From IMG/VR virus record IMGVR_UViG_3300033066_001786, positions 1 through 64,000 of that record: a DNA stretch of 64,000 nt; one strand, given 5' to 3'. Under the pieces are notes generated by a model. That model worked only from the letters and a program-made list of their open reading frames with translations. It was not told where the DNA came from and searched no databases. The DNA comes from a virus (taxonomy: Duplodnaviria; Caudoviricetes). Position numbers and translations under genes: made by a program. This document shows positions 2,102 through 27,093 of the stretch, in pieces; the first letter of the stretch is position 1, and each line of letters begins with the position of its first letter.

Positions 2102-3203
2102 AGTTTCCCCATCTGAAGAAGAAAACGTCTACAAATCGTATGTAACAGACGAAAGAGCAACTTTAATACTTAATAAAGGCATAGTAGCAGAGCAGTACAA
2201 AAAAATAACAGCAGCACTTCCTAGCGTAACCATGTATTATGCTATTAAGTCTATGCCGGATAAAGAAGTAATTAACACATTATACGAATGCGGATGTAAT
2301 TTTGATGTTGCAACATCAGGCGAAATCGATATCCTTAAAGAGCTATCAGTTGAATCTGAAAAAACTATTCATACGCACCCTATTAAAACTCAATTTGAAA
2401 TAGAAAAAGCAATCGAGTATGGTTGTGAAGTATTTGTAGTTGACAACTTACATGAACTTCTTAAATTTATACCATATAAAGATAAAGTATCGGTTTTGGT
2501 ACGGGTTAGCTTTAGAAGCGCAAATGCAAAGATTGATCTGTCTAAAAAGTTTGGTTGTAATGCAGACAAGATAGAAGAAATGCTTAGTAATGCAAGATCG
2601 CTAGGTATTAAAGTGATAGGCCTTTCGTTTCATGTCGGGTCTCAAAATACAGACCCTTCTATGTATGTTACTGCTATTAGTAAATGTGCAACAGTTTTCG
2701 AAAACTACACAAATTTAAAAGTGTTAGATATTGGCGGAGGGTTCCCTATTGCATACGATGGCGACGATATTAATATTGTTGAGTTTTGTGCGCCAATTAA
2801 TACAGCACTTGAACTAATACGTAAAGATGTAAAGGTAATTGCAGAACCAGGTAGATTTATATCTGGTCCAAGCGTAAAAGCAGTTACTACTATTGTCGGC
2901 AAAGCAATTAGAGATGACCGGGTTTGGTATTATTTAAACGACGGAGTCTACGGTTCTTATAGTGGTACTATTTTTGACCATGTTGCATATCCTATTCAAG
3001 TTTTTAGCGATAGCGACGAACTTCAGAAATGTGTACTTGCAGGCCCAACGTGCGATAGCGTCGATGTTATTGCAGAAGATATAATGCTACCAGATTTAGA
3101 AATAGGCGATATAATTGTAGGACATCAAATGGGGTCGTATACGCATGCGACTACTACGGAATTTAACTGTATTAAAAAGCCGAGGATTATTTATGTCTTA
3201 TAA
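2091..3203 (+). CDS. Ornithine (or lysine/ornithine) decarboxylase, PLP fold-type III
   Basis: YYAIKS (PLP lysine), FDVATSGE, KFG, SFHVGSQ, DIGGGF, EPGRF, DGVYGS, GPTCDS. Confidence 0.9.
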   Translation: MKIKVSPSEEENVYKSYVTDERATLILNKGIVAEQYKKITAALPSVTMYYAIKSMPDKEVINTLYECGCNFDVATSGEIDILKELSVESEKTIHTHPIKTQFEIEKAIEYGCEVFVVDNLHELLKFIPYKDKVSVLVRVSFRSANAKIDLSKKFGCNADKIEEMLSNARSLGIKVIGLSFHVGSQNTDPSMYVTAISKCATVFENYTNLKVLDIGGGFPIAYDGDDINIVEFCAPINTALELIRKDVKVIAEPGRFISGPSVKAVTTIVGKAIRDDRVWYYLNDGVYGSYSGTIFDHVAYPIQVFSDSDELQKCVLAGPTCDSVDVIAEDIMLPDLEIGDIIVGHQMGSYTHATTTEFNCIKKPRIIYVL

Positions 3204-3333
3204 GATATCTTTGTTTTTGTTGCTATTTACGACAATGGTAGGTTGTACAAATAAAACAACATTTGATATTAGGATCGACGAATTATGCAAAGATCCGGCT
3301 AATTTAAAATATAAAGAATGTAAAGGAAAATAA
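3193..3333 (+). CDS. Small putative lipoprotein (46 aa)
   Basis: ATG at 3193 after GAGG; MSYK, hydrophobic core, MVG-C lipobox-like motif. Confidence 0.55.
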   Translation: MSYKISLFLLLFTTMVGCTNKTTFDIRIDELCKDPANLKYKECKGK

Positions 3334-3334
3334 T

Positions 3335-3493
3335 ATGAATAGAAAAGTATGGTTAATAATCGCAGTTGCTAGTTTAAGTATGGCATTATTTGTGCCTGAT
3401 TGGAAAAGCGGAGTAATTGCACAAGAATACAATTACTCGGTTAATTCAACATACGTCGGTTCTAATATTAAAGAAAATTCTACAACTAAATAA
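3335..3493 (+). CDS. Small secreted/membrane peptide (52 aa)
   Basis: MNRKVWLIIAVASLSMALFV...; fills the gap exactly, and its TAA overlaps the next ATG. Confidence 0.55.
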   Translation: MNRKVWLIIAVASLSMALFVPDWKSGVIAQEYNYSVNSTYVGSNIKENSTTK

Positions 3494-4545
3494 TGGGCAA
3501 AATAACTCTTGCTAATTGGTACGGGGAATCTTTTATTAAAAAAGAGAGGGTTATGTTTGACCCTTTTTCCCCTTATTTGAATTGTTACGGTCACGTCGAT
3601 CAATTCGAAAACAACGATGCAAATGTAATTTTTAATAAAGACGAACCGGGTATTTTAGTAGTAGAAGACGGGAAAAATGCTAATATCGTTCGCAATGCAT
3701 GCTCTCATCGTCAAGCAATAATTGCAAGCGATACTTGCAAAAGGAAATCATTAAGGTGCCCTGCACACGCATGGAATTATGATTTATCTGGTACATTATT
3801 GCATACACCGTTATATCAAGGCGATTGCGGTAAATCTCTCAAAAAAACACCGTTAGATAAAATTAAAGGGTTGATGTATAGCGGAAATACAGAGTCAGTT
3901 GTTGATTTTTATAGAAATTTTTATCTAGCTGAGGATCTTTTTAATTTCGAAGATTTGAATTTGTACTCGAGTCAAACAGAGACTTACGATTTTAACTGGA
4001 AAACATTCTTGGATGTATATCTAGAGTTGTACCATGTTAAACCTGTTCACCCTGGACTTGGTAATTTTGTTGACGGTGTTAATTATAAGTGGTATTTTGG
4101 CAAAGGGTGGTCGGCACAAGTAATGCCCCTTAGCACTAAAAAATGCCCTTTTAGTTCGCATTGGAAAAACTATCAAGACATAGTTTTTGCAGATAAAGAA
4201 CTAGTAGAACAGAATATTGCTGCTATATGGGTGTTATTATATCCAGGTGTTATGTTAGAATGGTACCCGCATGCAAAAGTAATTTCTACACTTAAACCTG
4301 CACCAAATGGCAAATGCCTAAACAAAGTAGAAGTGTACTCTAATAGCAACACCTCAACTTTAGAACTTTTAACTAGTGCATATAATGAAAGTGCAAACGA
4401 AGATGCAAGTGCATGTTTAGGCATAGAACAAGGAAGAAAGATAATGTGGGATGCAGAAGAATACGTTGACTACTCTAAGACAGTATACGTAGATAAACAC
4501 GAAGATGGGATCCCACATTTTTATAATTGGTTAGCTAATCGTTAG
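3493..4545 (+). CDS. Rieske non-heme iron oxygenase, putrescine 2-hydroxylase-like
   Basis: Rieske CSH...CPAH ligands; mononuclear Fe region NWKTFLDVYLELYHVKPVHPGLGNFV; AIWVLLYPGVMLEWYPH; distal NED; C-terminal EDGIPHFYNW. Confidence 0.8.
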   Translation: MGKITLANWYGESFIKKERVMFDPFSPYLNCYGHVDQFENNDANVIFNKDEPGILVVEDGKNANIVRNACSHRQAIIASDTCKRKSLRCPAHAWNYDLSGTLLHTPLYQGDCGKSLKKTPLDKIKGLMYSGNTESVVDFYRNFYLAEDLFNFEDLNLYSSQTETYDFNWKTFLDVYLELYHVKPVHPGLGNFVDGVNYKWYFGKGWSAQVMPLSTKKCPFSSHWKNYQDIVFADKELVEQNIAAIWVLLYPGVMLEWYPHAKVISTLKPAPNGKCLNKVEVYSNSNTSTLELLTSAYNESANEDASACLGIEQGRKIMWDAEEYVDYSKTVYVDKHEDGIPHFYNWLANR

Positions 4546-9200: not shown

Positions 9201-10053
9201 TAAAACTTTCAGCATACAAGGCGGATCGGGCTCTGATACAGATAGTAATTTCTCATCCTATGATAATGCAGGGTCTCTAACTGCAAGCATAACAGCAGCA
9301 GGTGTTATAACTGGTTCAAGCATAACAGATACCACAGTTGGAAGTTCAATAAGCGGTGCTACTGCAAAAACAACACCTGTTAGTGCAGACAGTGTAGGTG
9401 TAAGCGATAGTGCAGATTCTAATAAACTAAAAAAGACAACTTTTGCAAATATTGCATCATGGATTAGTGCAAACGTTAATGCGTTAACTTCTACAACGTT
9501 GCAAACTGCAAGAAATATAGACGGTCAGTCTTTTGACGGGTCAACTAGTATCACAGTTATTGCACCAGGTACACATGCTGCGACATCAAAAACAACCCCA
9601 GTTGATGCAGATGAGTTGCCTATAGTTGACTCTGCAGCATCTAATATTTTAAAAAAATTAACATTTGCAAATTTAAAAGCATGGATAAAAACATATACAG
9701 ATACTTTATATTTAAGTATAACCCAGCCAACAACAACTCTTAGCAGTTCGAGCGGTGTTGTAACTATTGATCTTTCTTTAAACTATCGTAGATATGAACT
9801 TACATTAACTGAAAACGTTACTAGCTGGGTATTTACTAACGTGCCTGCGTCTGGATATTTTAGAGAAATAATAGTAGTAGTTATTCAGCATGCATCTGCA
9901 GCTAAAACAGTGATTACGCCAGCAACATCAGGGCGTACAGCCGGCGGTATAGCATGGGTTGCTTCGACTACACTCTCTTCGAGGGAAGCATTAGTTTTGC
10001 ACATTTTAAGCGATAGCACAGTTACTTTATATCCTACAGGTGTACAAGTATGA
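6271..10053 (+). CDS. Long tail fibre protein (1260 aa)
   Basis: Thr/Ser/Gly-rich; repeated ATxLxTARNIxGVxFDGTxDI, SxLTSVGVL, LGFTPEDVANK and KTTPVxAD modules; GATAAATA at 6243-6250 upstream. Confidence 0.85.
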   Translation: MDTSAGSNSTPTNIDGNASTATALQTPRNIQGVKFDGTEDIKLDIKAEELSGTTLSSNITKSNLTSVGVLTDLTVINPIKGTIIGSDVSIIGNAGSATKLENARNINGVPFDGTQDIVVVADANTLTGDTIPTNIKYSSLTSVGVLDYLTVRTPIVGDLTGNADTANLATNVLTNANLSGDVSSVGNVTTINSHKVINSMLQTVATSTFKGRITSGTGDVEDLTSTQATSILNTMVGDSGSGGTKGLVPAPITGDSTKFLRGDGTWAPASYSSGVMWDYKANTVATSGSPSSGHLLWNNATQISATELHVHKLADDGIDLSIFLSLLDTAYLLYIQDVNNAANYQTWQISGTTTDVGSVYWVVPVTLVNSGGTGTTGFSNNAQILVINKTSASSFVSSVSVVAANGFDGTVANAYTNPAITLKTTITGIIKGNGTSISAAISGTDYQPALGFTPEDVANKQTDLTASATKYPTVNAVNTGLSNTLSAAETYSANPANITQDSTHRFSSDSEKSTWNGKQDALGFTPEDVANKQTNLTASATKYPTVNAVNTGLGLKVDQTTTVNGHALTSNISLSYSDVGADASGAAASALSSAQSYADGKVQNSLVASTTIAPSASAVNTGLSGTLTTAEGYTDTQIGIEASSRSTADTRLLSPNSGVLTGLAVTINVDPTKFDIAAGTGIVVDWTTPATPTITYVSYAGSTGNTIPSMAAGYTRIYIDKTGTLIKSSGGLDTASFRRNYIVLPILYHPDHATITNVSTDRKPAYEEVEALNDYVKALGPINTGNGITANGANLNINKAAGVFTVLWANQSTDGQDPCNVTMSSATSPSFATVYRNGSGGNTETVPASTVDVTHYDDGSGTLATLTASYWVNNRFYVFPNNQIVMAYGQSQYKTSADAVAAIYTETFVAPVGYTQGKAVTVVSVQKSSTNLSTQAIFTNLNTLTAGGLNVTIPSLQAAFNASPVSPTPDIITNSVNKTFSIQGGSGSDTDSNFSSYDNAGSLTASITAAGVITGSSITDTTVGSSISGATAKTTPVSADSVGVSDSADSNKLKKTTFANIASWISANVNALTSTTLQTARNIDGQSFDGSTSITVIAPGTHAATSKTTPVDADELPIVDSAASNILKKLTFANLKAWIKTYTDTLYLSITQPTTTLSSSSGVVTIDLSLNYRRYELTLTENVTSWVFTNVPASGYFREIIVVVIQHASAAKTVITPATSGRTAGGIAWVASTTLSSREALVLHILSDSTVTLYPTGVQV
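7619..7925 (+). repeat. 91-bp direct repeat inside the fibre gene (7619-7709 and 7835-7925)
   Basis: Both copies encode LGFTPEDVANKQT(D/N)LTASATKYPTVNAVNTG; 3 mismatches seen. Confidence 0.9.
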
Positions 10054-12914
10054 TTAGTGCTGCTAATGATTTATCAATGCAAAGAGCCGCGATGGTTGCG
10101 GCTGACTTCAACTTCGCAAACTGTGGAGCAGTAACAACTCTCCCACCATTCCTAACAGCACTCAACGCAACTTACACCCGCCCCAGTGTAATGAATGTGT
10201 TGCAAGGCACAACGCTAGTGCAACTCTCCTCAGACCAATTCGGTACCCACCGTGACGGTGTGCCAGTTGCATACAGCGAGAAAAACAAACTCCGTTTCAC
10301 GCAAGAATTCGACAACGCATTTCATACTAAAAACAATCTAACTGTAACTGCTAACGCTGCAAATGATAGCGATGGTAACGCAACGGCGGATAAGTTGTGT
10401 GAGTCTTCAACGTCAAATGTTGCGCATTATCTCGGGAGTTACACGCACCTCGGCATTGGTGTATTACAGACTTTTTCTGTCGAAGTGCGAGCTGCTGAAC
10501 GCACTCAGTGTTACATACAGCTCGGCGCTGCCGGTGTATTTTTTAACCTGTCTACAGGTGCAGTAATATCTGGGACAGGTGGCACTATAACTTCACTCGG
10601 CGGAGGTTTGTACCGTTGCTCAGTAACGGGCGCTCCAACTAACAATAATCTATTTTTCGGTTTAGCAAGTTCTAGTAGCCCAAGCTACGCAGGCACAGTA
10701 GGCTACGGACTCTACGTTTCCAAAGTACAACTAGAATTCGGTGGACTTACTGCGTACGAAAGAAACTACGATGGCGTCACTGGTAAGTATGGTGCGCTGA
10801 TTGAAGGTGCTGCGACGAATATCCTGACATATTCGGAACAGTTTGATAATGCTGTTTGGTCAAAAGTTCAGTCTAGCATTACCGCCAATGCTGCCGTAGC
10901 TCCTGACGGAAATACAACCGCAGACAAGCTAATCCCCAACACAGCTCTGTCGCAGCACCGTGTGGACCTAACTTCAACCTCTACCGCAGCAACTTATACT
11001 TTCAGTGTTTTTATAAAAACCGCTGGATATAACTATGCGTTTATTAGGATAGGAGCCACGGCGGGCGTGGTGGTGAATCTGACAAACGGCGCGACTGTTT
11101 TAACCGGCGCGGCCTCAAACCCTTTAGCTGAAAGTTATGGCAATGGTTGGTATAGATGCTCTTTTTCCTGCACAGCTGGCGTGAACGATACTGTCAGAAT
11201 AAATGTAGAGGAAGCATCCAACAGCACTGATTTCACGGGCGACGGGACGTCAGGAATTTATATATGGGGCGCACAGCTAGAAACCGGAAACATCGCCACA
11301 TCTTACATACTCACAACCTCATCAACCGCAACCCGCGCGGCAGCAAAACTTCTTGTGCCCTTGTGGAAGAACAATCTCAAATATTCTACTGATCCAACTG
11401 GTACAGGTTGGAGTCGCACTAACGTAACGCTAACTACAGGGCAATCAGATAGCTCCGGTGGAACGACTGCGGTAAAAGTGGAAGCTACTACAACCGCTGC
11501 TACAAACCTTGTACAAAACACAATTACTGCCCCGGCAGGAGTTGTGACCTACAGCATAAAAGTCAAAGCGGGCACTGGCCCAACAAGTTTGTTTTTTCTT
11601 TTACGTAATCAAGGCACCTCTACTAACTTTCAGCTTGGAACCTTCACCACTGCAACAGGCGCAATTTCTGGCACAGGGTGGACTTCTACTGCGGATAGCA
11701 ACGGCTACTACAAATTAACTTTCACACAATCAACTGGAATATCCGTTGGTGACAATTTGTTTTGTTATGTTGGGTGGACTGGAGGATCAGTCACAGCAGG
11801 ACACAACTTCTATTACGAATCCCCACAGCTTGAGTCTGGCGCAACTGCTACAACTTACGTTCCGACAACTTCGACGCTTGATGTAACAGGTAACGCAACC
11901 ATTCCAGGATTTAAAAGCGGAGATTTATTATCCGTTCCAGTGTATAAAAACGTCCTTAAATACTCTGGAGATTTAACTAATGCTTATTGGGTGCAGACAG
12001 GGCTTTCATCTCTAGTAGGTGGGCAGTCTGATCCAGATAGCGGAAGCAATGCGTTTCTTCTAACAGAGAACAGCTCTACCAGTAACCACTTTGTTGTACC
12101 GCAAGCTGCCACAACTGGCGCAATTATGCGTATGAGAGTGAAAGCAAAATCAAACGGACGACACCTTTTCATGGAAATCGGCGGTACCGCTTATGGGTCA
12201 ATAAATCTAACAACAGGCGCTGTAATATCTTCTACCGGATGCACAATAACTACTACCTCGCTCGGAAGCGGTTGGTGGCTATGTGACTTTCTAACTTCTT
12301 CCGCATCAACCTCAACTGGAGCGTACTTCGCACTATCCACAGCAGCAGGTAATACCAATTACGCAGGGGGTGGGGCGTCGGGAATCTATTTATATCGTCC
12401 GCAACTATCCGTAAGTTCCGAAGTGCAGACTTATGTAGAAACAACTAGCACGTTAGACGTTACCGATAATGCTATCAACGCAGGTTTCTCAAGCGCAGGT
12501 TACACGCTGGCTGCGGATTGGCGGAGTATTGCTGCAAGGACTACAGCAGTAGGGCTGATGGAGTTAAACGACAATACATCATCAAACCGATCGAATCTAC
12601 TGGTCTCAAACTCCGATCTTTTCAACCCCAATTCAGTAACAGGCGGGGCTTCGCAGATGTCTATTGTGGGAGCGGCGTGTACAACATTGCGGCGAAAAGG
12701 GGCTGCTAGTTATCAGGCTAATAATTTCCTTGCAGCTAACAACGGCGTGGCGCTGACAGCAGACACATCCGGCACCATGCCGACAGGAATGCTTTTACTT
12801 AATCTCGGCTCCCTCAACACAGGAGCTAGTTCGTTCAATGGCGGCCCAATCTTCCGCCTCCAACTCATCCCAAAGGCGCTCTCTCAAGCACAAGTCAACG
12901 GATGGTCAACATGA
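10050..12914 (+). CDS. Fibre/spike receptor-binding protein with four tandem carbohydrate-binding-like domains
   Basis: Four repeats starting N.L.(Y/F)(S/T) and ending QL(E/S)....T.Y; visibly more GC-rich than flanking genes. Confidence 0.75.
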   Translation: MISAANDLSMQRAAMVAADFNFANCGAVTTLPPFLTALNATYTRPSVMNVLQGTTLVQLSSDQFGTHRDGVPVAYSEKNKLRFTQEFDNAFHTKNNLTVTANAANDSDGNATADKLCESSTSNVAHYLGSYTHLGIGVLQTFSVEVRAAERTQCYIQLGAAGVFFNLSTGAVISGTGGTITSLGGGLYRCSVTGAPTNNNLFFGLASSSSPSYAGTVGYGLYVSKVQLEFGGLTAYERNYDGVTGKYGALIEGAATNILTYSEQFDNAVWSKVQSSITANAAVAPDGNTTADKLIPNTALSQHRVDLTSTSTAATYTFSVFIKTAGYNYAFIRIGATAGVVVNLTNGATVLTGAASNPLAESYGNGWYRCSFSCTAGVNDTVRINVEEASNSTDFTGDGTSGIYIWGAQLETGNIATSYILTTSSTATRAAAKLLVPLWKNNLKYSTDPTGTGWSRTNVTLTTGQSDSSGGTTAVKVEATTTAATNLVQNTITAPAGVVTYSIKVKAGTGPTSLFFLLRNQGTSTNFQLGTFTTATGAISGTGWTSTADSNGYYKLTFTQSTGISVGDNLFCYVGWTGGSVTAGHNFYYESPQLESGATATTYVPTTSTLDVTGNATIPGFKSGDLLSVPVYKNVLKYSGDLTNAYWVQTGLSSLVGGQSDPDSGSNAFLLTENSSTSNHFVVPQAATTGAIMRMRVKAKSNGRHLFMEIGGTAYGSINLTTGAVISSTGCTITTTSLGSGWWLCDFLTSSASTSTGAYFALSTAAGNTNYAGGGASGIYLYRPQLSVSSEVQTYVETTSTLDVTDNAINAGFSSAGYTLAADWRSIAARTTAVGLMELNDNTSSNRSNLLVSNSDLFNPNSVTGGASQMSIVGAACTTLRRKGAASYQANNFLAANNGVALTADTSGTMPTGMLLLNLGSLNTGASSFNGGPIFRLQLIPKALSQAQVNGWST

Positions 12915-19156: not shown

Positions 19157-20389
19157 ATGTCTATATTTGATAGCGGTGGGTTCATAGGTCGAACTGTTGG
19201 CGGTTCACTTGACAGTATATCTAGCGGCGTTAGTGGCATCTTAAATGATGCCATTGGCGGTGCAATATCTGGTTTGTTCGGCAGCGAATTCGTCCCGTAT
19301 ATGAGAGACAGTAGGAGTGCTGCATTTAGTTTCGGGCAGTATTCTACATACATGCAAGAAAACTACCCACGGTTAAAATTTAATTATTTTGTAAGAATTA
19401 GAATAAACCCAGATCCGGAAGTATCTAATTTTGCTGCAATGTATATGGGTACTCGAGATTTAGAATTATTAATACCCCTTATTAAAAGAGTTGATATGCC
19501 AGGTTTTAAAGTCGAATCTAGCATTCTTAACCAATATAACAAAAAAAGAGTTTCGCAGACAAAAGTTACATTTGAAGAAGTACAAATGGTATTTTACGAT
19601 GTAGTAGACGGAAAAAGTTTAAGATTTTGGGAAATGTACTACGAGTATTATTTTAAAGACGGTGAAGTGCTTAGTAAATTAAAACCGTCAAACGGATCGT
19701 TAAAAACTGATGTATTTCAGGACGACATAATAAGTGACGGTTGGGGAGACTTTGAAACCGGTTTCGGTCACTATTCACAAATTAAAAGTAAATATCTAAT
19801 CGAGTCAATTGATATATATCAAGTACATGCAGGAAACTTTAGTAGAGTTTCACTAGTACACCCCAGAATAACATCTTTTAAACATGATTCATTACAGTAT
19901 TTGGAATCGACACCTGTAGAAATTACAATGTCTTTTCAACCCGAAGATGTAGTGTATTATAATTTCTACAAAGGGTACGACGATAGCACCGAAGGTGAGA
20001 ACCCATATAAGAATAGTGGTGCTAAAGAATTAAAAATGCATACAGTAAAAACACCTCTAATTGTGCCCGTAAGAGAAAGTAGGGATACTTTGTTAACAGG
20101 CGCCGGAGGAGTAACAGATACAAGTGTATTAGGCGCGCTCGAACGTAATGTTAAATCGTATATAGAGAATTTACCCGAACAAGTAGCAAGGGCAGCATCT
20201 TCTGCTATTTTTACAGGCAAAGCAGAATTTCCCATAAACCCTAAAGAAGCAGCAAAAAGTATCTTAACAAATTCAGGTCGGCAGATTACAGGTGTAGGCC
20301 GTAGGACTTTCAATACAGCAGTAACGGCAGGTGTAGGTGCAGTAACAGGCGTAATACTTTCTCCGTTTAAGGACAACTCAAGACAATGA
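19157..20389 (+). CDS. Tail-tube-like baseplate/tube initiator (gp54/gp48-like)
   Basis: DMPG...NQYNKKR, L..P.ITSF.HD.L.Y tube-fold motifs; follows the tube gene. Confidence 0.6.
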   Translation: MSIFDSGGFIGRTVGGSLDSISSGVSGILNDAIGGAISGLFGSEFVPYMRDSRSAAFSFGQYSTYMQENYPRLKFNYFVRIRINPDPEVSNFAAMYMGTRDLELLIPLIKRVDMPGFKVESSILNQYNKKRVSQTKVTFEEVQMVFYDVVDGKSLRFWEMYYEYYFKDGEVLSKLKPSNGSLKTDVFQDDIISDGWGDFETGFGHYSQIKSKYLIESIDIYQVHAGNFSRVSLVHPRITSFKHDSLQYLESTPVEITMSFQPEDVVYYNFYKGYDDSTEGENPYKNSGAKELKMHTVKTPLIVPVRESRDTLLTGAGGVTDTSVLGALERNVKSYIENLPEQVARAASSAIFTGKAEFPINPKEAAKSILTNSGRQITGVGRRTFNTAVTAGVGAVTGVILSPFKDNSRQ

Positions 20390-20829
20390 ACCGATCGAGT
20401 GTAGATAGTATAACCAGGCAAGGTGTTACAAAGACAATCCAAGTAAAAGACGGAACCTTTAAAAACACATATGCTAACGCAACTAGTCCACAATATGCAG
20501 CCGACCCTAGTGCTGTTTATTTTGCATCTAATAAACTTGAAAAGAATTTTTACAATAGCTTTAGTTATAACACTATTGTGGGTAAATTTTTAAATGCCGG
20601 TACGTCACATACGAATGCACATAGTATGGCTAAATTAGTAATAGATGTTGCAAAGTTAAAAAATATAGATGCAAGAGATATACAAATTAGTGTAGTAGAC
20701 GGCAAGATAGATTTGCCAAACGACATTTTATTATATATGAATATTTTACGTGACCCGAGTTCTAAAGTAGTTAAATTGCTAACAGGTCTAAATAGAAGAA
20801 GCATACTTGGACGAGAAATAATCGGATGA
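20386..20829 (+). CDS. Hypothetical structural-region protein
   Basis: 147-aa ORF translationally coupled on both sides. Confidence 0.6.
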   Translation: MNRSSVDSITRQGVTKTIQVKDGTFKNTYANATSPQYAADPSAVYFASNKLEKNFYNSFSYNTIVGKFLNAGTSHTNAHSMAKLVIDVAKLKNIDARDIQISVVDGKIDLPNDILLYMNILRDPSSKVVKLLTGLNRRSILGREIIG

Positions 20830-21254
20830 GTAGGACGTATAGGGGTTTTTATGAAATTAAAAATCTCTCTAAATATATAGGTAGTAATAAACCCTATGCA
20901 AGAAGTACATGGGAATTAGCTTTCATGCGATTCTGCGATGAAAATACCAATGTATTGCATTGGGGCAGCGAAACAATTAAGATTCCGTACCTAAATCCTA
21001 TCACGCATAAATACACAGTGTATGTGCCTGATTTTTTTGTAGTATATGTTGATAAGAACGGTAAGCAACATGCAGAATTAATCGAAGTAAAGCCAAAAAA
21101 AGAAGCAGCATTAAGCGAAGCAAAATCAGTAAGAGATAAAATTAGATTAACAATAAATGCTGCAAAATGGGCAGCCGCTTTAGAATTTTGTAAAAAGAAA
21201 GGGATATTCTTCCGCATAGTAACTGAGGATGATCTTTTTAGGAAATACAAATGA
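20826..21254 (+). CDS. Head completion nuclease (T4 gp4-like, TnsA-type PD-(D/E)XK)
   Basis: KY.G...ARSTWE..FM.FCD....W.SE...IPY....Y.PDF....LIEVKP...N.AKW.AA. Confidence 0.9.
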   Translation: MSRTYRGFYEIKNLSKYIGSNKPYARSTWELAFMRFCDENTNVLHWGSETIKIPYLNPITHKYTVYVPDFFVVYVDKNGKQHAELIEVKPKKEAALSEAKSVRDKIRLTINAAKWAAALEFCKKKGIFFRIVTEDDLFRKYK

Positions 21255-22347: not shown

Positions 22348-23943
22348 ATGGATAATATTTTAAGATTGTTAGAATTAGCAGGTGCCTCAGAGCAGAAACT
22401 CGAAGAATATCGTAAAAAGAAAGAAGATTCGCTTGCAACCGACGAAGACGAATTAGGCGATTTTGAAAACGAAATGCCAGGTGAATTTCATTTAATGGAC
22501 GTCGAAGAAGAACCAGTAAGCGCCGATGCATGGGCAGGCGAAACAAGATCGCGTCCTAGATACGATCATAGTCAAGAAGATTCGTTTGATAGTCTCCCTA
22601 TGTTTGATGATATTTCGGACGACATCTTAGCAGAACCAGAAGATGACTTTGAAAAATCATTATCCGGTAAAAAACATAACATAGTAGATGTTGGAGACGA
22701 CGATGATTTATTTGCTGACTTTACTGATGACGATGATTTATCCGACTTAGGTTTTAACCAACACAAATACACAGAAGCTGCCAAACCAAAAGTAGACGAC
22801 GATTGCGATGTAACAGAAGATGATTTCGATAGAGCTATTGCAAAAAAAGGTATAGTAGATGTTGGTGATGAAGACGACTATTTAAGCAGTGACGATGATT
22901 TATCTGATTTAGGTTTTGGCAAACACCAATACAACGAGTCAATTGACATTAATGCAATAAGATCACTTATACAAAAAACAGCCGAAGGTGTTAGGCATGC
23001 TACTAAACAAGGTAATAATGGTTTAGCAGATAGGTGGGCTATTAAATTAAAGAATGAACTCGAAAACCAAGGTTACAATTGGAAAAGAGACCCGTATGCT
23101 TTAGAAATACTAGGTGATTATTTAGATGAGTCACAACACCAATACAACGAAGCCGAACACGATGACCCATTATCAGATATATATGTTGGGAGAAACGGTG
23201 AAGAAAAAACTGCCGAAGAATGGTTAGACGATATTGGCGGGATAGAAACACTTTTAGGTAGAAAACTATTCGGCGCCCCAACACAAGAATTAATAAGAGA
23301 CCATCTCTTCCAGCAAGGTATAACACCTAAAGTAACAGAAGCCGCCAAACCAAAAGTAGAAGACGAAACAGAAGAAGATGATTTTGAAAAATCATTATCC
23401 GGTAAGAAACATAACATAGTAGATGTTGGAGACGACGATTATAACGACGATTACGAAGACAAAGAATATGTTAAATCGTTATTCGACGATGTTTCCGATT
23501 TACCAACTAGCGATATTACCGCCGCAGTAGAACATTTAATGGGTACATTACGCGGTATGATGTACGCTGGTGACGAAAAACAACAAAAAGCAGATAAAGT
23601 GTTAGCCGATTATGGTTTCAAAGGCGATTCTTTTGAAGAGCTACAAGAGTTCCTCGAAACAATGAATGTTGACGAATTGGCTAAATTAACAGATGCAGTA
23701 CAGTCAGATTGGGTTCCAGAGTCAAGCGAAAACAATGGTTTTGGCGAAGATAAAAATTATGGCAGCGCATATACTAATCCTTTTTTCCCGAACGGTGCAG
23801 AAGGTACAGCAGCAACAAGATCACTTGGCCCAACATCTGCTAAACAGTCTGATAATCCTATGCGTAATAGTATGATGAGCGAAGAACAAAAACAAATACA
23901 TGAAAAATTAGTAGAATCTTACAAATTATTCCTCAAAAAATAA
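22348..23943 (+). CDS. Very acidic repeat-containing protein, probable head core/internal protein
   Basis: Asp/Glu-rich; MDNILRLLELAG start; repeated EDDFEKSLSGKKHNIVDVGDDD, DDDLSDLGF, H(K/Q)Y(T/N)E and EAAKPKV. Confidence 0.6.
   Translation: MDNILRLLELAGASEQKLEEYRKKKEDSLATDEDELGDFENEMPGEFHLMDVEEEPVSADAWAGETRSRPRYDHSQEDSFDSLPMFDDISDDILAEPEDDFEKSLSGKKHNIVDVGDDDDLFADFTDDDDLSDLGFNQHKYTEAAKPKVDDDCDVTEDDFDRAIAKKGIVDVGDEDDYLSSDDDLSDLGFGKHQYNESIDINAIRSLIQKTAEGVRHATKQGNNGLADRWAIKLKNELENQGYNWKRDPYALEILGDYLDESQHQYNEAEHDDPLSDIYVGRNGEEKTAEEWLDDIGGIETLLGRKLFGAPTQELIRDHLFQQGITPKVTEAAKPKVEDETEEDDFEKSLSGKKHNIVDVGDDDYNDDYEDKEYVKSLFDDVSDLPTSDITAAVEHLMGTLRGMMYAGDEKQQKADKVLADYGFKGDSFEELQEFLETMNVDELAKLTDAVQSDWVPESSENNGFGEDKNYGSAYTNPFFPNGAEGTAATRSLGPTSAKQSDNPMRNSMMSEEQKQIHEKLVESYKLFLKK
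22639..23439 (+). repeat. 66-bp direct repeat (22639-22704 and 23374-23439) plus degenerate copies
   Basis: Near-identical DNA encoding EDDFEKSLSGKKHNIVDVGDDD. Confidence 0.85.
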
Positions 23944-23967
23944 ATAGGGGGCGAAAGCCCCTTATTT
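23942..23967 (+). terminator. Stem-loop / likely intrinsic terminator
   Basis: AAATAGGGGGC-GAAA-GCCCCTTATTT with a GNRA loop. Confidence 0.7.
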
Positions 23968-23986
23968 CACTTCAACAGAGTAAACC

Positions 23987-24340
23987 ATGGACGACTTAAT
24001 TAAGAAACCTGGACAATTAGTATCCTATACACCTAAAGAAATTGAAGAACTTAAAGCTTGTGCAGACCCATCGTCTGGCCCTTTATACTTTATGGAAAAT
24101 TTTATATATGTCCAACATCCAGTAGATGGTCGCATAAAATTTAACCCCTACCCTTTCCAACGAGAACTTATATACAACTATCATAATTTCAAGAGCAATA
24201 TTTGTTTAGTATCGAGGCAAAATGGTAAATGTTTAGTGGGCAACGAAATGATAAATATAAGAAACAAAAAAACAGGTGAGATTAAAAAAGTCACCTTTAA
24301 AGAATTTAAAGAGATTGTTAAAGATGGAAAAACAGGATAA
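23987..24340 (+). CDS. terL: Terminase large subunit N-extein (81 aa) fused to split-intein N-fragment (36 aa)
   Basis: gp17-like P.YF..NF.Y..HP..G...F..YPFQ...SRQNGK, then C(1)LVGNEMINIR... starting at 24230. Confidence 0.9.
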   Translation: MDDLIKKPGQLVSYTPKEIEELKACADPSSGPLYFMENFIYVQHPVDGRIKFNPYPFQRELIYNYHNFKSNICLVSRQNGKCLVGNEMINIRNKKTGEIKKVTFKEFKEIVKDGKTG

Positions 24341-25767
24341 AAGATGCAAAACTTGCGATACTGTTATTTGTAATCCAATTAGAAATCAATTTTTTTGCAA
24401 AATAGAATGTAAGCCTTCGTTTCGTAGGTCGAAGCCCACAGTTGAGTTAAATTGTAACTATTGCGGTAATGTATTTGAGACTAACAGAAAGCGGGTTACT
24501 TGTTGTTCTAAAGAGTGCAGAAGGTTATATAATCAAGATGTATATCGTATAAGACATAGCGAAGGAAAACCTTCAATAATTTGTAAGGTTTGTAATATGC
24601 CATTTCGATCACTTATGGGACATCTTTCGAAGAAGCATAATATTACGTCGCAAGAGTACAAAAAGTTATATCCAGGCGAAATAGTAATAGCCGATGATAT
24701 TAAAGAGATGTTTTCTAATAATATGAAAGGGGAAAAGAACCCAGGTTATCAACATGGTGGTACGATGTCGCCATGGTCAAACAAGAATAAATATTTCAGT
24801 GCAGAACAAATAGAAGCATCGAAACAAAAAGCAATGGCAAACATCATTAATGGTACAATGTTAGAATATTATACTAACAAAGGCCATTCTATGGAAGAGG
24901 CAATAAAATTACGTTCTGATAGGCAGCGTACATTTACTTTGGCAAAGTGTATAGTAAAACACGGAGAAGAAGAAGGTAAAAAAGTGCATCGTGCCCGCCA
25001 GGAAAAATGGGCTAAAAGTTATAAAAAAAGTAATTTTTCAAAAATATCACAGGAATTATTTTGGGGAATTATTGCACAGGCAGGGATGAAAGAATCGTAT
25101 TTTTTTGCAACTAACAATAAAGGTGAAAAATCTACAGATTCGATTAACTACGAAACAGTGCTTACCTTAAATGACGGGGTAATAAGACCGGACTTCGTAT
25201 GTGTAGATAAAAAATGCATAATAGAATTTGACGGTGACTACTGGCATAGCGAAGCCAGGGGAAACCAAAATAGAGATGCAGAAAGGGATAAAAAAGCAAC
25301 AGATTCCGGATATAACGTTTTACGTATAAAAGAAAGAGATTATAGGAAAGACAAAAAATTTGAAATACAAAAGTGTATTTCTTTTTTAAACGGAAATTTT
25401 TAAGAAAATGTTAAGTAATACAACATATAGAAAGTTCACTGAAGTTATAGATGTTAGTGATTGGGAAGTAGAAACACAAGACGGATTTGTTGATGTTCTA
25501 AATTTCAACACAACTATACATTACGGTGTGTGGTTAATTGAGTTAGATAACGGCCTTACATTAAAAGGTGCAGACACACACATATTAATACAAGATAATG
25601 GGCAAGAAGTATATATAAAAGATTCTCTTGGGTGTTTTATTAATACTAAGTACGGACCATCTAAAGTAACAAATGTTGTTGATTTAGGTTACGAAGAAGA
25701 GATGTATGATTTAACAATAGATAGCAAAGACCACACATATTATACAAGTGATATATTAAGTCATAAT
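24230..25767 (+). mobile_element. Split intein plus homing endonuclease cassette interrupting terL
   Basis: IntN 24230-24337, endonuclease 24324-25403, IntC 25408-25767 ending SHN before Thr+1. Confidence 0.85.
24324..25403 (+). CDS. Free-standing Vsr-like (EDxHD/DUF559-type) homing endonuclease with Zn-finger and NUMOD-like motifs
   Basis: CxxC clusters, CKVC...HLSKKH, GEKNP, PDF.....IIEFDGDYWH...RD..RD.....GY.VLRI; lies between the two intein halves; ATG 24324 preferred over GTG 24276. Confidence 0.85.
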   Translation: MEKQDKRCKTCDTVICNPIRNQFFCKIECKPSFRRSKPTVELNCNYCGNVFETNRKRVTCCSKECRRLYNQDVYRIRHSEGKPSIICKVCNMPFRSLMGHLSKKHNITSQEYKKLYPGEIVIADDIKEMFSNNMKGEKNPGYQHGGTMSPWSNKNKYFSAEQIEASKQKAMANIINGTMLEYYTNKGHSMEEAIKLRSDRQRTFTLAKCIVKHGEEEGKKVHRARQEKWAKSYKKSNFSKISQELFWGIIAQAGMKESYFFATNNKGEKSTDSINYETVLTLNDGVIRPDFVCVDKKCIIEFDGDYWHSEARGNQNRDAERDKKATDSGYNVLRIKERDYRKDKKFEIQKCISFLNGNF

Positions 25768-27093
25768 ACAGTTTGCGCCGCCTGCTATTTATTGTGGTAT
25801 GCAATGTTTGTACCAGATTCGACTATTTTAGTTGCTTCTAAATCTGGTGCAGATGCTAAAGAGATTATGATACGTATTAGATATGCATATGAAGAATTAC
25901 CAAATCATATTAAAGCAGGTGCAAGAGACTATAACAAGCAATCGTTAACGTTCGACAACGGTTCTCGAATAGTTTCGGCGACTACGACAGAGAACACTGG
26001 CCGAGGTATGTCTATTTCTTTAGTTTACTTGGATGAATTCGCATTTGTCCCCCCTAGAGTAGCTAAAGAACTGTGGACCTCATTGTCCCCTACTTTGTCA
26101 ACGGGCGGTCGATGCATAATGACAAGTACACCTAGTAGCGACGAAGATCAGTTTGCAGAATTATGGTTTGATGCTAACAAAAGGATAGACGAATACGGCA
26201 ATGAAAAAGAAGTTGGTAAAAACGGATTTAGGCCGTTTTTTGCAACATGGCGAGATAACCCTACTAGGGGAGAAGAATGGGCAGCAGAAGAAGAAGGTAA
26301 AATTGGCACTGATAGATTCGGAAGAGAACACGAATGTAAATTCTTGATATTCCAAGAGACTTTAGTTAATTCGTCTAAGCTTGCTAAAATCGACGGCTTG
26401 CCTATTATACAAAAAACAGGAGAAATACGATGGTACAAACGTATCGACCAAAATTGTACGTACATTGTATCTCTTGACCCTGCTATGGGGACAGGTGGAG
26501 ATAATGCTGCTATTCAAGTGTACGAGCTCCCCTCGTTGATACAAGTTGCCGAGTGGCAACATAACAAGACAAACATTGAAGGTCAAATGCGTATATTACG
26601 TCAAATATTGCAGGATATCTATTCTCAAGGTCAACCTGAGATATATTGGTCAGTTGAAACTAATTCGTTAGGCGAAGCTGCACTTGTTATTATACGTGAA
26701 ACAGGTGAAGAATATTTCCCAGGTACAATGTTACATGAACCTAAAACAGGGGAAGGTAAACGTAGACGCGGGTTTACAACTACCAATAGAAGCAAGCTCG
26801 AAGCTTGTGCTAAGTTAAAAACTTTAATAGAGTCTGAAAAATTAACAATATCATCTAAGAACTTAATAAGTGAATTAAAAACCTTTATTGCTAAAGGTAA
26901 TTCATATGAGGGTAGATCCGGTTGTACAGACGACCTCGTGTCGGCTACATTACTTGCAGTTAGAATGCTCCAAGTTGTTGCAGCATGGGATGATAATTGT
27001 GCTGCTAAGTTATCCTCTACTATATTAGATGGTGACGAGGGTTATGAAGACGATGACGACTATGAGGCTCCAATGCCTGCAGCGTTTTGTTAA
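25408..27093 (+). CDS. terL: Split-intein C-fragment (120 aa) fused to terminase large subunit C-extein (441 aa)
   Basis: ADTH block B, MYDLTI...HTYY block F, ILSHN|T; then Walker B LVYLDEFAF, TSTP, nuclease SLDPAMG...DN and DDLV. Confidence 0.9.
   Translation: MLSNTTYRKFTEVIDVSDWEVETQDGFVDVLNFNTTIHYGVWLIELDNGLTLKGADTHILIQDNGQEVYIKDSLGCFINTKYGPSKVTNVVDLGYEEEMYDLTIDSKDHTYYTSDILSHNTVCAACYLLWYAMFVPDSTILVASKSGADAKEIMIRIRYAYEELPNHIKAGARDYNKQSLTFDNGSRIVSATTTENTGRGMSISLVYLDEFAFVPPRVAKELWTSLSPTLSTGGRCIMTSTPSSDEDQFAELWFDANKRIDEYGNEKEVGKNGFRPFFATWRDNPTRGEEWAAEEEGKIGTDRFGREHECKFLIFQETLVNSSKLAKIDGLPIIQKTGEIRWYKRIDQNCTYIVSLDPAMGTGGDNAAIQVYELPSLIQVAEWQHNKTNIEGQMRILRQILQDIYSQGQPEIYWSVETNSLGEAALVIIRETGEEYFPGTMLHEPKTGEGKRRRGFTTTNRSKLEACAKLKTLIESEKLTISSKNLISELKTFIAKGNSYEGRSGCTDDLVSATLLAVRMLQVVAAWDDNCAAKLSSTILDGDEGYEDDDDYEAPMPAAFC

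Follow-up and report, generated by a model that had tools for sequence, protein, structure and literature searches.

Fractured genes were defined in 2009 by Dassa, London, Stoddard, Schueler-Furman and Pietrokovski in Nucleic Acids Research (PMC2677866), in loci where a host gene is divided between two open reading frames (ORFs), each carrying one half of a split intein; a free-standing endonuclease gene of the Vsr-like or GIY-YIG type separates the two, and the frames overlap. The Vsr-like family, which accounts for half of those loci (PMC2677866), was characterised by Taylor et al. (PMC3239194), and its members, the EDxHD endonucleases, occur in phages with introns, including group I introns, with inteins and with fractured genes (PMC2677866, PMC3239194). 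In the large terminase (TerL), characterised atypically split inteins consist of a short N-terminal intein fragment (IntN) and a long C-terminal one (IntC): 25 and 104 amino acids (aa) in AceL-TerL, 37 and 115 aa in GOS-TerL, and 30 and 104 aa in Cat, all with cysteine as the first residue (+1) of the C-extein. Natural short IntNs span 15 to 37 aa; such inteins are used for protein semisynthesis, and few have been characterised (AceL, GOS, Cat, VidaL and PolB16). Here we report an analysis of a 64,000-nucleotide (nt) stretch of DNA from an uncultured giant phage (hereafter the window), which comprises positions 1 to 64,000 of the IMG/VR record IMGVR_UViG_3300033066_001786; some searches covered the whole 113-kb contig. 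We find that terL in the window is very probably a fractured gene, with an atypically split intein in its Walker A motif and a free-standing Vsr-like endonuclease gene between its halves, a reading that rests on homology, conserved motifs, the exactness of the extein junction and an architecture kept in relatives. The arrangement has been known since 2009, and the window copy is real but ordinary, a member of a very large natural family.

The locus comprises three ORFs on the plus strand, which is also the strand of all other features given below. ORF1 (23987–24340, 117 aa) encodes an 81-aa TerL N-extein (23987–24229), whose last residues (SRQNGK) open Walker A, and then a 36-aa IntN (24230–24340, coding to 24337), which begins with Cys1 (codon 24230–24232), contains block A, strands β1 and β2, helix α1 and a short tail, and ends in KDGKTG before a TAA stop codon (24338–24340). 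ORF3 (25408–27093, 561 aa) begins at its own ATG with a 120-aa IntC (25408–25767), which carries block B (ADTH, with His58), block F (Asp101 and His109) and block G (His119-Asn120, codons 25762–25767); its ILSHN at residues 116 to 120 is followed by TVCAA, the start of a 441-aa C-extein (25768–27093) in which Thr+1 completes Walker A (GK/T, the slash marking the junction between extein and intein residues here and below). ORF2 lies between the halves. Its listed start is a GTG at 24276, and an ATG at 24324, which gives a 359-aa protein (24324–25403) with a start that matches those of its relatives, is on this comparison most plausibly the true one. ORF2 thus overlaps ORF1 by 17 nt in a different frame, and its stop at 25403 precedes the ATG of ORF3 by 4 nt. 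Two halves of a host gene, each joined to half of an intein, with a free-standing endonuclease ORF between them on one strand, make up the anatomy of the loci of Dassa et al. (PMC2677866). The original prediction, made from the sequence letters, had given this division of ORF1 and ORF3, and each of its coordinates was borne out; its description of a basic IntN and an acidic IntC likewise agrees with isoelectric points of 9.6 (9 Lys and Arg, 5 Asp and Glu) and 4.25 (7 and 21, respectively).

This layout bears on the possibility that ORF2 is housed by a self-splicing group I intron and that RNA splicing would yield one contiguous, intein-containing terL mRNA, as has been read for Campylobacter phage IBB_35. 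Group I introns are indeed known to harbour EDxHD endonucleases. However, the overlap with ORF1 and the 4-nt gap before ORF3 leave no non-coding room for an intron core, positions 23800 to 26000 matched no Rfam family at E ≤ 1, and IntC has its own conserved methionine and IntN its own stop throughout the family; we give the intron hardly any credence.

The exteins belong to a T4-type large terminase. The N-extein matches the PHROG terminase profile (E = 3e-15) and is 51% identical to residues 14–97 of the TerL of Pseudomonas phage PA5oct, and the C-extein scores above the Pfam cutoffs for Terminase_6N (E = 1e-12) and Terminase_6C (E = 1e-11), matches T4 gp17 structures (E = 4e-33) and is 63% identical to PA5oct TerL. 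Together they hold an ATPase domain, with Walker A and Walker B (LVYLDE), and a C-terminal RNaseH-like nuclease domain. PA5oct TerL (531 aa) is intein-free and is encoded in the same structural-gene neighbourhood, and it defines the junction exactly: its residues 14–93, ending GRQLGK, align to ORF1 residues 2–81, and its sequence from S94 onward aligns to ORF3 from T121 onward, with no residue lost or duplicated (GK/S). The Walker A of T4 gp17 (SRQLGKT) aligns across the break likewise. Removal of the intein fragments thus leaves a host protein that is continuous with PA5oct TerL and T4 gp17 across GK/T, and Walker A is complete only once both exteins are joined, in a protein of 81 + 441 = 522 aa, the length and restored motif that had been predicted for the product. 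The closest extein relatives, from IMG/VR and Joint Genome Institute (JGI) metagenomes (53–57% identity), are mostly intein-free, with RQMGK/ST or RQSGK/TT at this position, and a metagenome scan for terL recovered only intein-free or distant loci. Within this TerL lineage the insert thus occurs sporadically, the pattern expected of a mobile element.

The intein fragments carry the residues of a class 1 intein. Cys1, residue 82 of ORF1, directly follows the GK whose lysine aligns to K93 of PA5oct TerL, and it is invariant in 26 IntNs. In a set of 18 proteins that carry IntC in different hosts, H58, D101, L117, S118, H119 and N120 are invariant and A55, D56 and H109 nearly so, and a 46-sequence alignment of IntCs with contiguous inteins (A4) gave the same picture. 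Thus, the block B histidine, the block F aspartate and histidine, the block G His-Asn pair and the +1 residue (T121 of ORF3, aligned to PA5oct S94) are all invariant or nearly so, the +1 position being threonine or serine in the family; the threonine nucleophile had been anticipated correctly. Block B, identified beforehand as ADTH in the C-fragment, has alanine in place of threonine family-wide, and since this alanine is shared across the alignments it is a family trait rather than a defect of the window copy. The IntNs, aligned alone (A5), share the consensus C....T.I.IRNKKTGE....TIGEF.E; the window IntN can be aligned gap-free with 21 other split IntNs and with the opening 30-odd residues of one-piece relatives. 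IntN contains block A alone, and blocks B, F and G lie in IntC, in separate ORFs with their own stop and their own ATG. From these features we infer that the two halves splice in trans.

Some points weigh against this reading. Most inteins have threonine where this family has alanine in block B, and position 6 of block A is glutamate in the window, usually threonine or serine in the family; either substitution could slow splicing. We found no experimental or proteomic evidence of splicing, either for the window copy or for any Walker-A-site member, and our literature search found no test of a Walker-A-site split TerL intein, a weak negative, as many subscription papers lay outside the search. 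In addition, the contig is 113 kb long and the genome is probably larger, so that a second intact terL could lie elsewhere. The charge complementarity and the complete HINT fold would equally fit halves that merely associate through their intein fragments, giving a non-covalent TerL heterodimer that carries a folded intein, and unspliced genes in pieces do exist, such as the fragmented NrdA that is assembled by interaction domains. However, the break lies inside the P-loop, between its lysine and threonine, where a 156-aa domain should wreck ATP binding, and the residues needed only for the chemistry (C1, H58, D101, H119, N120 and T+1) are strictly conserved across hundreds of split copies. 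Association without splicing is, on this evidence, extremely unlikely.

The incompleteness of the contig could also favour a dead or decaying terL, with packaging carried out by a terminase gene outside the 113 kb, and decay does occur in the family, as suggested by a relative with one in-frame stop in its IntC (L073:4001–4360), a stop that may reflect either decay of that copy or a sequencing error. Against a pseudogene stand three intact ORFs, extein halves that are 51–63% identical to PA5oct TerL with their motifs kept, a conserved structural-gene neighbourhood as in PA5oct, and a nearest relative whose intein and extein are conserved to a similar degree. The 113-kb contig contained no second copy of terL, of the intein or of the endonuclease gene; a weak IntN-like match (19511–19618; E = 0.017), which falls within a structural ORF of 410 aa, was attributed to chance. 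We regard a pseudogene as very unlikely.

The fold was judged on a contiguous relative at the same site rather than on the two pieces of the window. This natural one-piece intein (L088; GK/C...SHN/S, 171 aa) gave a structure model with a mean predicted local distance difference test score (pLDDT) of 87.9 and a predicted template modelling score (pTM) of 0.80, in which residues 1–33 (two strands and a helix) and 58–171 are confident and only residues 34–57 are disordered (pLDDT < 50). A Foldseek search with the model returned only inteins and HINT domains, VidaL first (E = 5.5e-9; template modelling score 0.83 normalised to the target), indicating a predicted HINT fold. The window IntN maps to β1–β2–α1, residues 1–33 of the model, the window IntC begins in the disordered linker, and the N terminus of CatC, the C-terminal fragment of Cat, maps to an equivalent place. 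The split in the window is thus predicted to lie at the position termed S2, after helix α1, as in AceL-TerL and GOS-TerL.

A comparison with the characterised systems revealed the same anatomy at a considerable evolutionary distance. AceL-TerL, GOS-TerL and Cat-TerL (PDB 6dsl) are class 1 inteins split at S2 after helix α1, with IntNs of 25–37 aa and IntCs of 104–115 aa, and the window intein is likewise of class 1 and split at S2, with a short IntN (36 aa) and a long IntC (120 aa); CatC aligns to the family profile over residues 12–111, placing its split at an equivalent position. However, their +1 residue, which we used as a proxy for the insertion site, is cysteine, whereas the window has threonine at Walker A. 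Moreover, in a direct comparison that comprised the CatC chain only, CatC was found by profile (E = 4.2e-7), and no match came from the single sequence at E ≤ 10. From such sequence comparisons, the window intein appears to belong to a distinct subfamily, distant from AceL, GOS and Cat. When the A4 profile, which includes the window IntC, was compared with solved inteins, the best matches were VidaL (PDB 6vgv; 6e-12) and gp41-1 (PDB 6qaz; 8e-12), both from phage-like metagenomic DNA, followed by CatC (4e-7). VidaL is split after β2, with a 16-aa IntN, and gp41-1 is split canonically, and both have host genes and insertion sites unlike those of the window. The same anatomy was described for the one terminase of Dassa et al., from Lake Gatun, 'fractured at an unusual point', in which a 122-aa C-part holds all of the N-motifs but N1 (PMC2677866), against 120 aa in the window. 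This likeness is one of description; if that terminase is the later GOS-TerL, its Ser1 and Cys+1 differ from the Cys1 and Thr+1 of the window.

The middle gene encodes a putative homing endonuclease, for which the Vsr-like assignment made beforehand stands. ORF2 scores above the Pfam cutoff for DUF559 (34.3 bits against 20.6; E = 2.3e-8), with weaker matches to REase_MTES_1575 and Vsr and with ROS_MUCR just under its cutoff, and it has 306 relatives. A profile built from 27 of its relatives matched I-Bth0305I (PDB 3r3p; E = 3.9e-5) and Vsr (PDB 1vsr and 1cw0; E about 0.01) over residues about 285–359 (25176–25400). Within this domain, the family-invariant residues D290, E301, G304, W307, H308 and E337 are all present, and the EDxHD catalytic set (D290, E301, D303 and H308), mapped onto I-Bth0305I by alignment only, is invariant or nearly so in the 27 relatives, consistent with a predicted Vsr fold. 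As in I-Bth0305I, the EDxHD prototype (PMC3239194), the Vsr-fold nuclease with its conserved acidic and histidine residues is C-terminal. By contrast, the front end of I-Bth0305I consists of NUMOD repeats (PMC3239194), whereas that of ORF2 has CxxC zinc-ribbon-like repeats followed by a Ros/MucR-type zinc-finger module (residues 75–116; 24546–24671), recognised by a profile match to PDB 2jsp (E = 3.8e-6), a Pfam ROS_MUCR match (E = 1.9e-5) and the invariant C87, C90 and H105.

The intein family proved to be large. An initial search with IntC, at a clustering identity of 90%, yielded 90 clusters, of which about 80 start with IntC at residues 1–4; an exhaustive search, with clustering at 50% identity, yielded 689 clusters, 373 of them at E ≤ 1e-10, and most of the best 150 start with IntC. 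Two short IntC motifs matched more than 591 IMG/VR stretches, 537 of which were confirmed, and IntC matches 308 GenBank phage records. The earlier description of such systems as rare therefore applies to characterised examples only; in sequence data, with the clusters and GenBank records just given and more than 537 IMG/VR stretches, the clade is abundant. The hosts are mainly TerL, together with ClpB-like AAA+, DnaB, SMC and ABC ATPases. Layouts were counted in 82 inspected IMG/VR loci, about 50 of which have an N-half that ends GK/C and continues through a 32–59-aa IntN to a stop. In roughly 25 of these 50, an ORF of 306–497 aa precedes IntC; in about 17, the gap measures just −11 to 250 nt. 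In 44 of the 82 loci, the end of an ORF2-like gene falls within a few bases of the point where IntC begins. Both the IntN stop and the methionine that initiates IntC are conserved across the family, and some of the inspected loci are in one piece.

These counts bear on a further reading, in which sequencing or assembly errors broke a single contiguous intein with an in-frame endonuclease domain. Contiguous relatives do exist, both as mini-inteins (L030, L052, L088 and L102) and with a nested endonuclease gene (L028 and L031). However, such errors would have to include no fewer than two compensating frame changes, each of the three proteins is on record in identical form on four contigs, and the nearest relative (63–73% identity) has the same 117-aa N-half with its stop and an IntC initiated by methionine. 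The layout is, moreover, common to about 50 independent loci and a finished genome of a cultured phage, and the same stop and start positions are kept at dozens of independent loci. The chance that the split is such an artefact is negligible.

Identities between the window and the nearest relative differ among the components, with 25/36 residues in IntN, 47/81 in the N-extein, 88/120 in IntC, 310/435 in the C-extein and 39% in the endonuclease. By this sequence measure the intein appears to be constrained at least as much as the essential enzyme that carries it, and the endonuclease appears to turn over faster. Across 48 TerL C-halves, IntC is closer than the extein to that of the window in 47 (medians 56% versus 29%), which indicates horizontal spread.

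The relatives retain every stage between an empty site and a split gene: empty sites, contiguous mini-inteins, contiguous inteins with a nested, out-of-frame endonuclease gene, split inteins with an endonuclease gene and split inteins without one. The nested form is represented by two relatives from IMG/VR (L028:2834–5653 and L031:2780–5653) in which terL is a single ORF of 939 or 957 aa that contains, at the same GK/C site, a one-piece intein of 421 aa, and an intact 279-aa ORF2-like endonuclease gene (3177–4016 in both) lies in a different frame within the intein-coding region; in a third (L030) that intein lacks the insert and measures 192 aa. The maintenance of two open frames across about 840 nt points to selection for contiguity. 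Endonucleases encoded out of frame in a similar way have been reported for inteins of actinophages (bioRxiv 10.1101/2025.01.02.630785).

Other relatives carry more than one intein, at two further TerL sites: Walker B and QEVx/C...HN/CEF, the latter with 26–30-aa IntNs. Nine proteins of about 330 aa each (P0019, P0022, P0024, P0025, P0027, P0045, P0046, P0066 and P0070) consist of a Walker-A-site IntC, TerL extein residues 1–190 and a second short IntN after QEVx/C, so that TerL would there be assembled from three parts by means of two atypically split inteins. Two more (P0028 and P0039) have three inteins in one TerL, at Walker A, at Walker B (..SHVY/C...HN/CDE) and at QE../C...HN/CEF. Judged by its Cys+1 alone, the QEVx/C site may be the site of AceL and GOS.

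The same intein family occurs in cultured phages. In Ackermannviridae (Vibrio phages Kuja and VAP7 and Salmonella phage heyday) it occupies the identical GK/C...SHN/T site, as one-piece mini-inteins, whereas the window copy is split; these copies and those of Campylobacter phages (F379 and the CP220 group) are 35–43% identical to the window IntC. In Campylobacter phage F379 (L122; MT932329, 1373–4719), as in the window, terL occupies three ORFs, namely a 167-aa N-half ending PRQ/C plus 30 aa, a 381-aa GIY-YIG-like gene and a 573-aa C-half that starts with IntC. The F379 junction lies two residues upstream of that in the window (PRQ/C...SHN/SSKST), and its middle ORF is GIY-YIG-like, whereas that of the window is Vsr-like. 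The F379 annotation names the middle gene an intron-associated endonuclease, and the paper on phage IBB_35 reads the arrangement as 'an intein and an intron' (PMC3322345). In Kuttervirus phages, as at 1632–2513 in Salmonella phage heyday (L124), a free-standing F-LimIX-like homing endonuclease gene lies directly upstream of, and overlaps, the terL with the contiguous Walker-A-site intein. The viability of the cultured carriers argues indirectly that the family splices.

These observations are best explained by the following model, which we consider very probable. A class 1 intein and a homing endonuclease gene would have invaded terL of a PA5oct-like jumbo phage in the P-loop codons of Walker A (GK/T), the endonuclease gene lodging in the flexible linker after the first helix of the intein; since that gene starts and stops independently, in another frame, its presence would have divided both the intein and the host gene into two parts. 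Three proteins would now be made, probably from one transcript: TerL(1–81)-IntN36, the endonuclease and IntC120-TerL(82–522). The basic IntN would dock into the acidic, nearly complete IntC and complete the HINT fold, whereupon an N–S acyl shift at Cys1, attack of Thr+1 on the thioester, cyclisation of Asn120 and an O–N shift would join the exteins without a scar into a 522-aa TerL whose P-loop is intact. We consider it sound to infer that DNA packaging depends on this trans-splicing. During co-infection, the most likely targets of the endonuclease are terL alleles that lack the intein or the endonuclease gene, into which repair would then copy the element.

Expression of the locus may be more complex than a single transcript. 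A G+C-rich hairpin followed by a T-run (23946–23963) lies between the stop of the upstream gene (23943) and the start of the terL N-half and is terminator-like, so that the N-half is probably read by read-through; no terminator-like hairpin was found between the three ORFs. An over-represented, late-promoter-like octamer, GATAAATA, occurs inside the IntN codons (24250–24257), 66 nt before the endonuclease ATG. It has 26 matches in the window against 7.4 expected by shuffling, mostly 15–30 nt before plus-strand genes, and the copy at 24250 could be an internal late promoter. If so, a transcript of the endonuclease gene and the terL C-half without the N-half might arise. A sigma-70 promoter scan performed no better than shuffles.

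Elsewhere in the window, positions 10001–12000 have a G+C content of 0.465, against about 0.35 in the rest, and a 142-aa ORF among the structural genes (20826–21254), read by eye, contains ...PDFFVVYVD...ELIEVKP... and looks like a small PD-(D/E)xK nuclease.

A broader reading joins these strands, and we offer it as a tentative proposal that we lean against accepting as a whole. The Walker-A-site clade would be a highly mobile, uncharacterised family of atypically split inteins that hops among unrelated P-loop nucleoside triphosphatases (TerL, ClpB-like AAA+, DnaB and SMC/ABC) by way of their shared GK[ST] codons. In the window, the two halves would form a Cys1/Thr+1 pair that splices efficiently in trans and is orthogonal to Cat, AceL and GOS and to VidaL; a late promoter within the IntN codons may make their expression unequal. 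For protein semisynthesis, the clade offers hundreds of natural variants with predicted Cys1/Thr(Ser)+1 chemistry as candidate tools. The suggestion that the window intein may itself be a new orthogonal short-IntN tool holds in modest form: its 36-aa IntN is not especially short, lying at the long end of the natural range, and this copy alone adds little. For phage biology, the locus shows how a homing endonuclease gene in the linker of an intein turns a one-piece intein into a split one, and the packaging ATPase would be one more essential phage enzyme able to exist only after protein trans-splicing.

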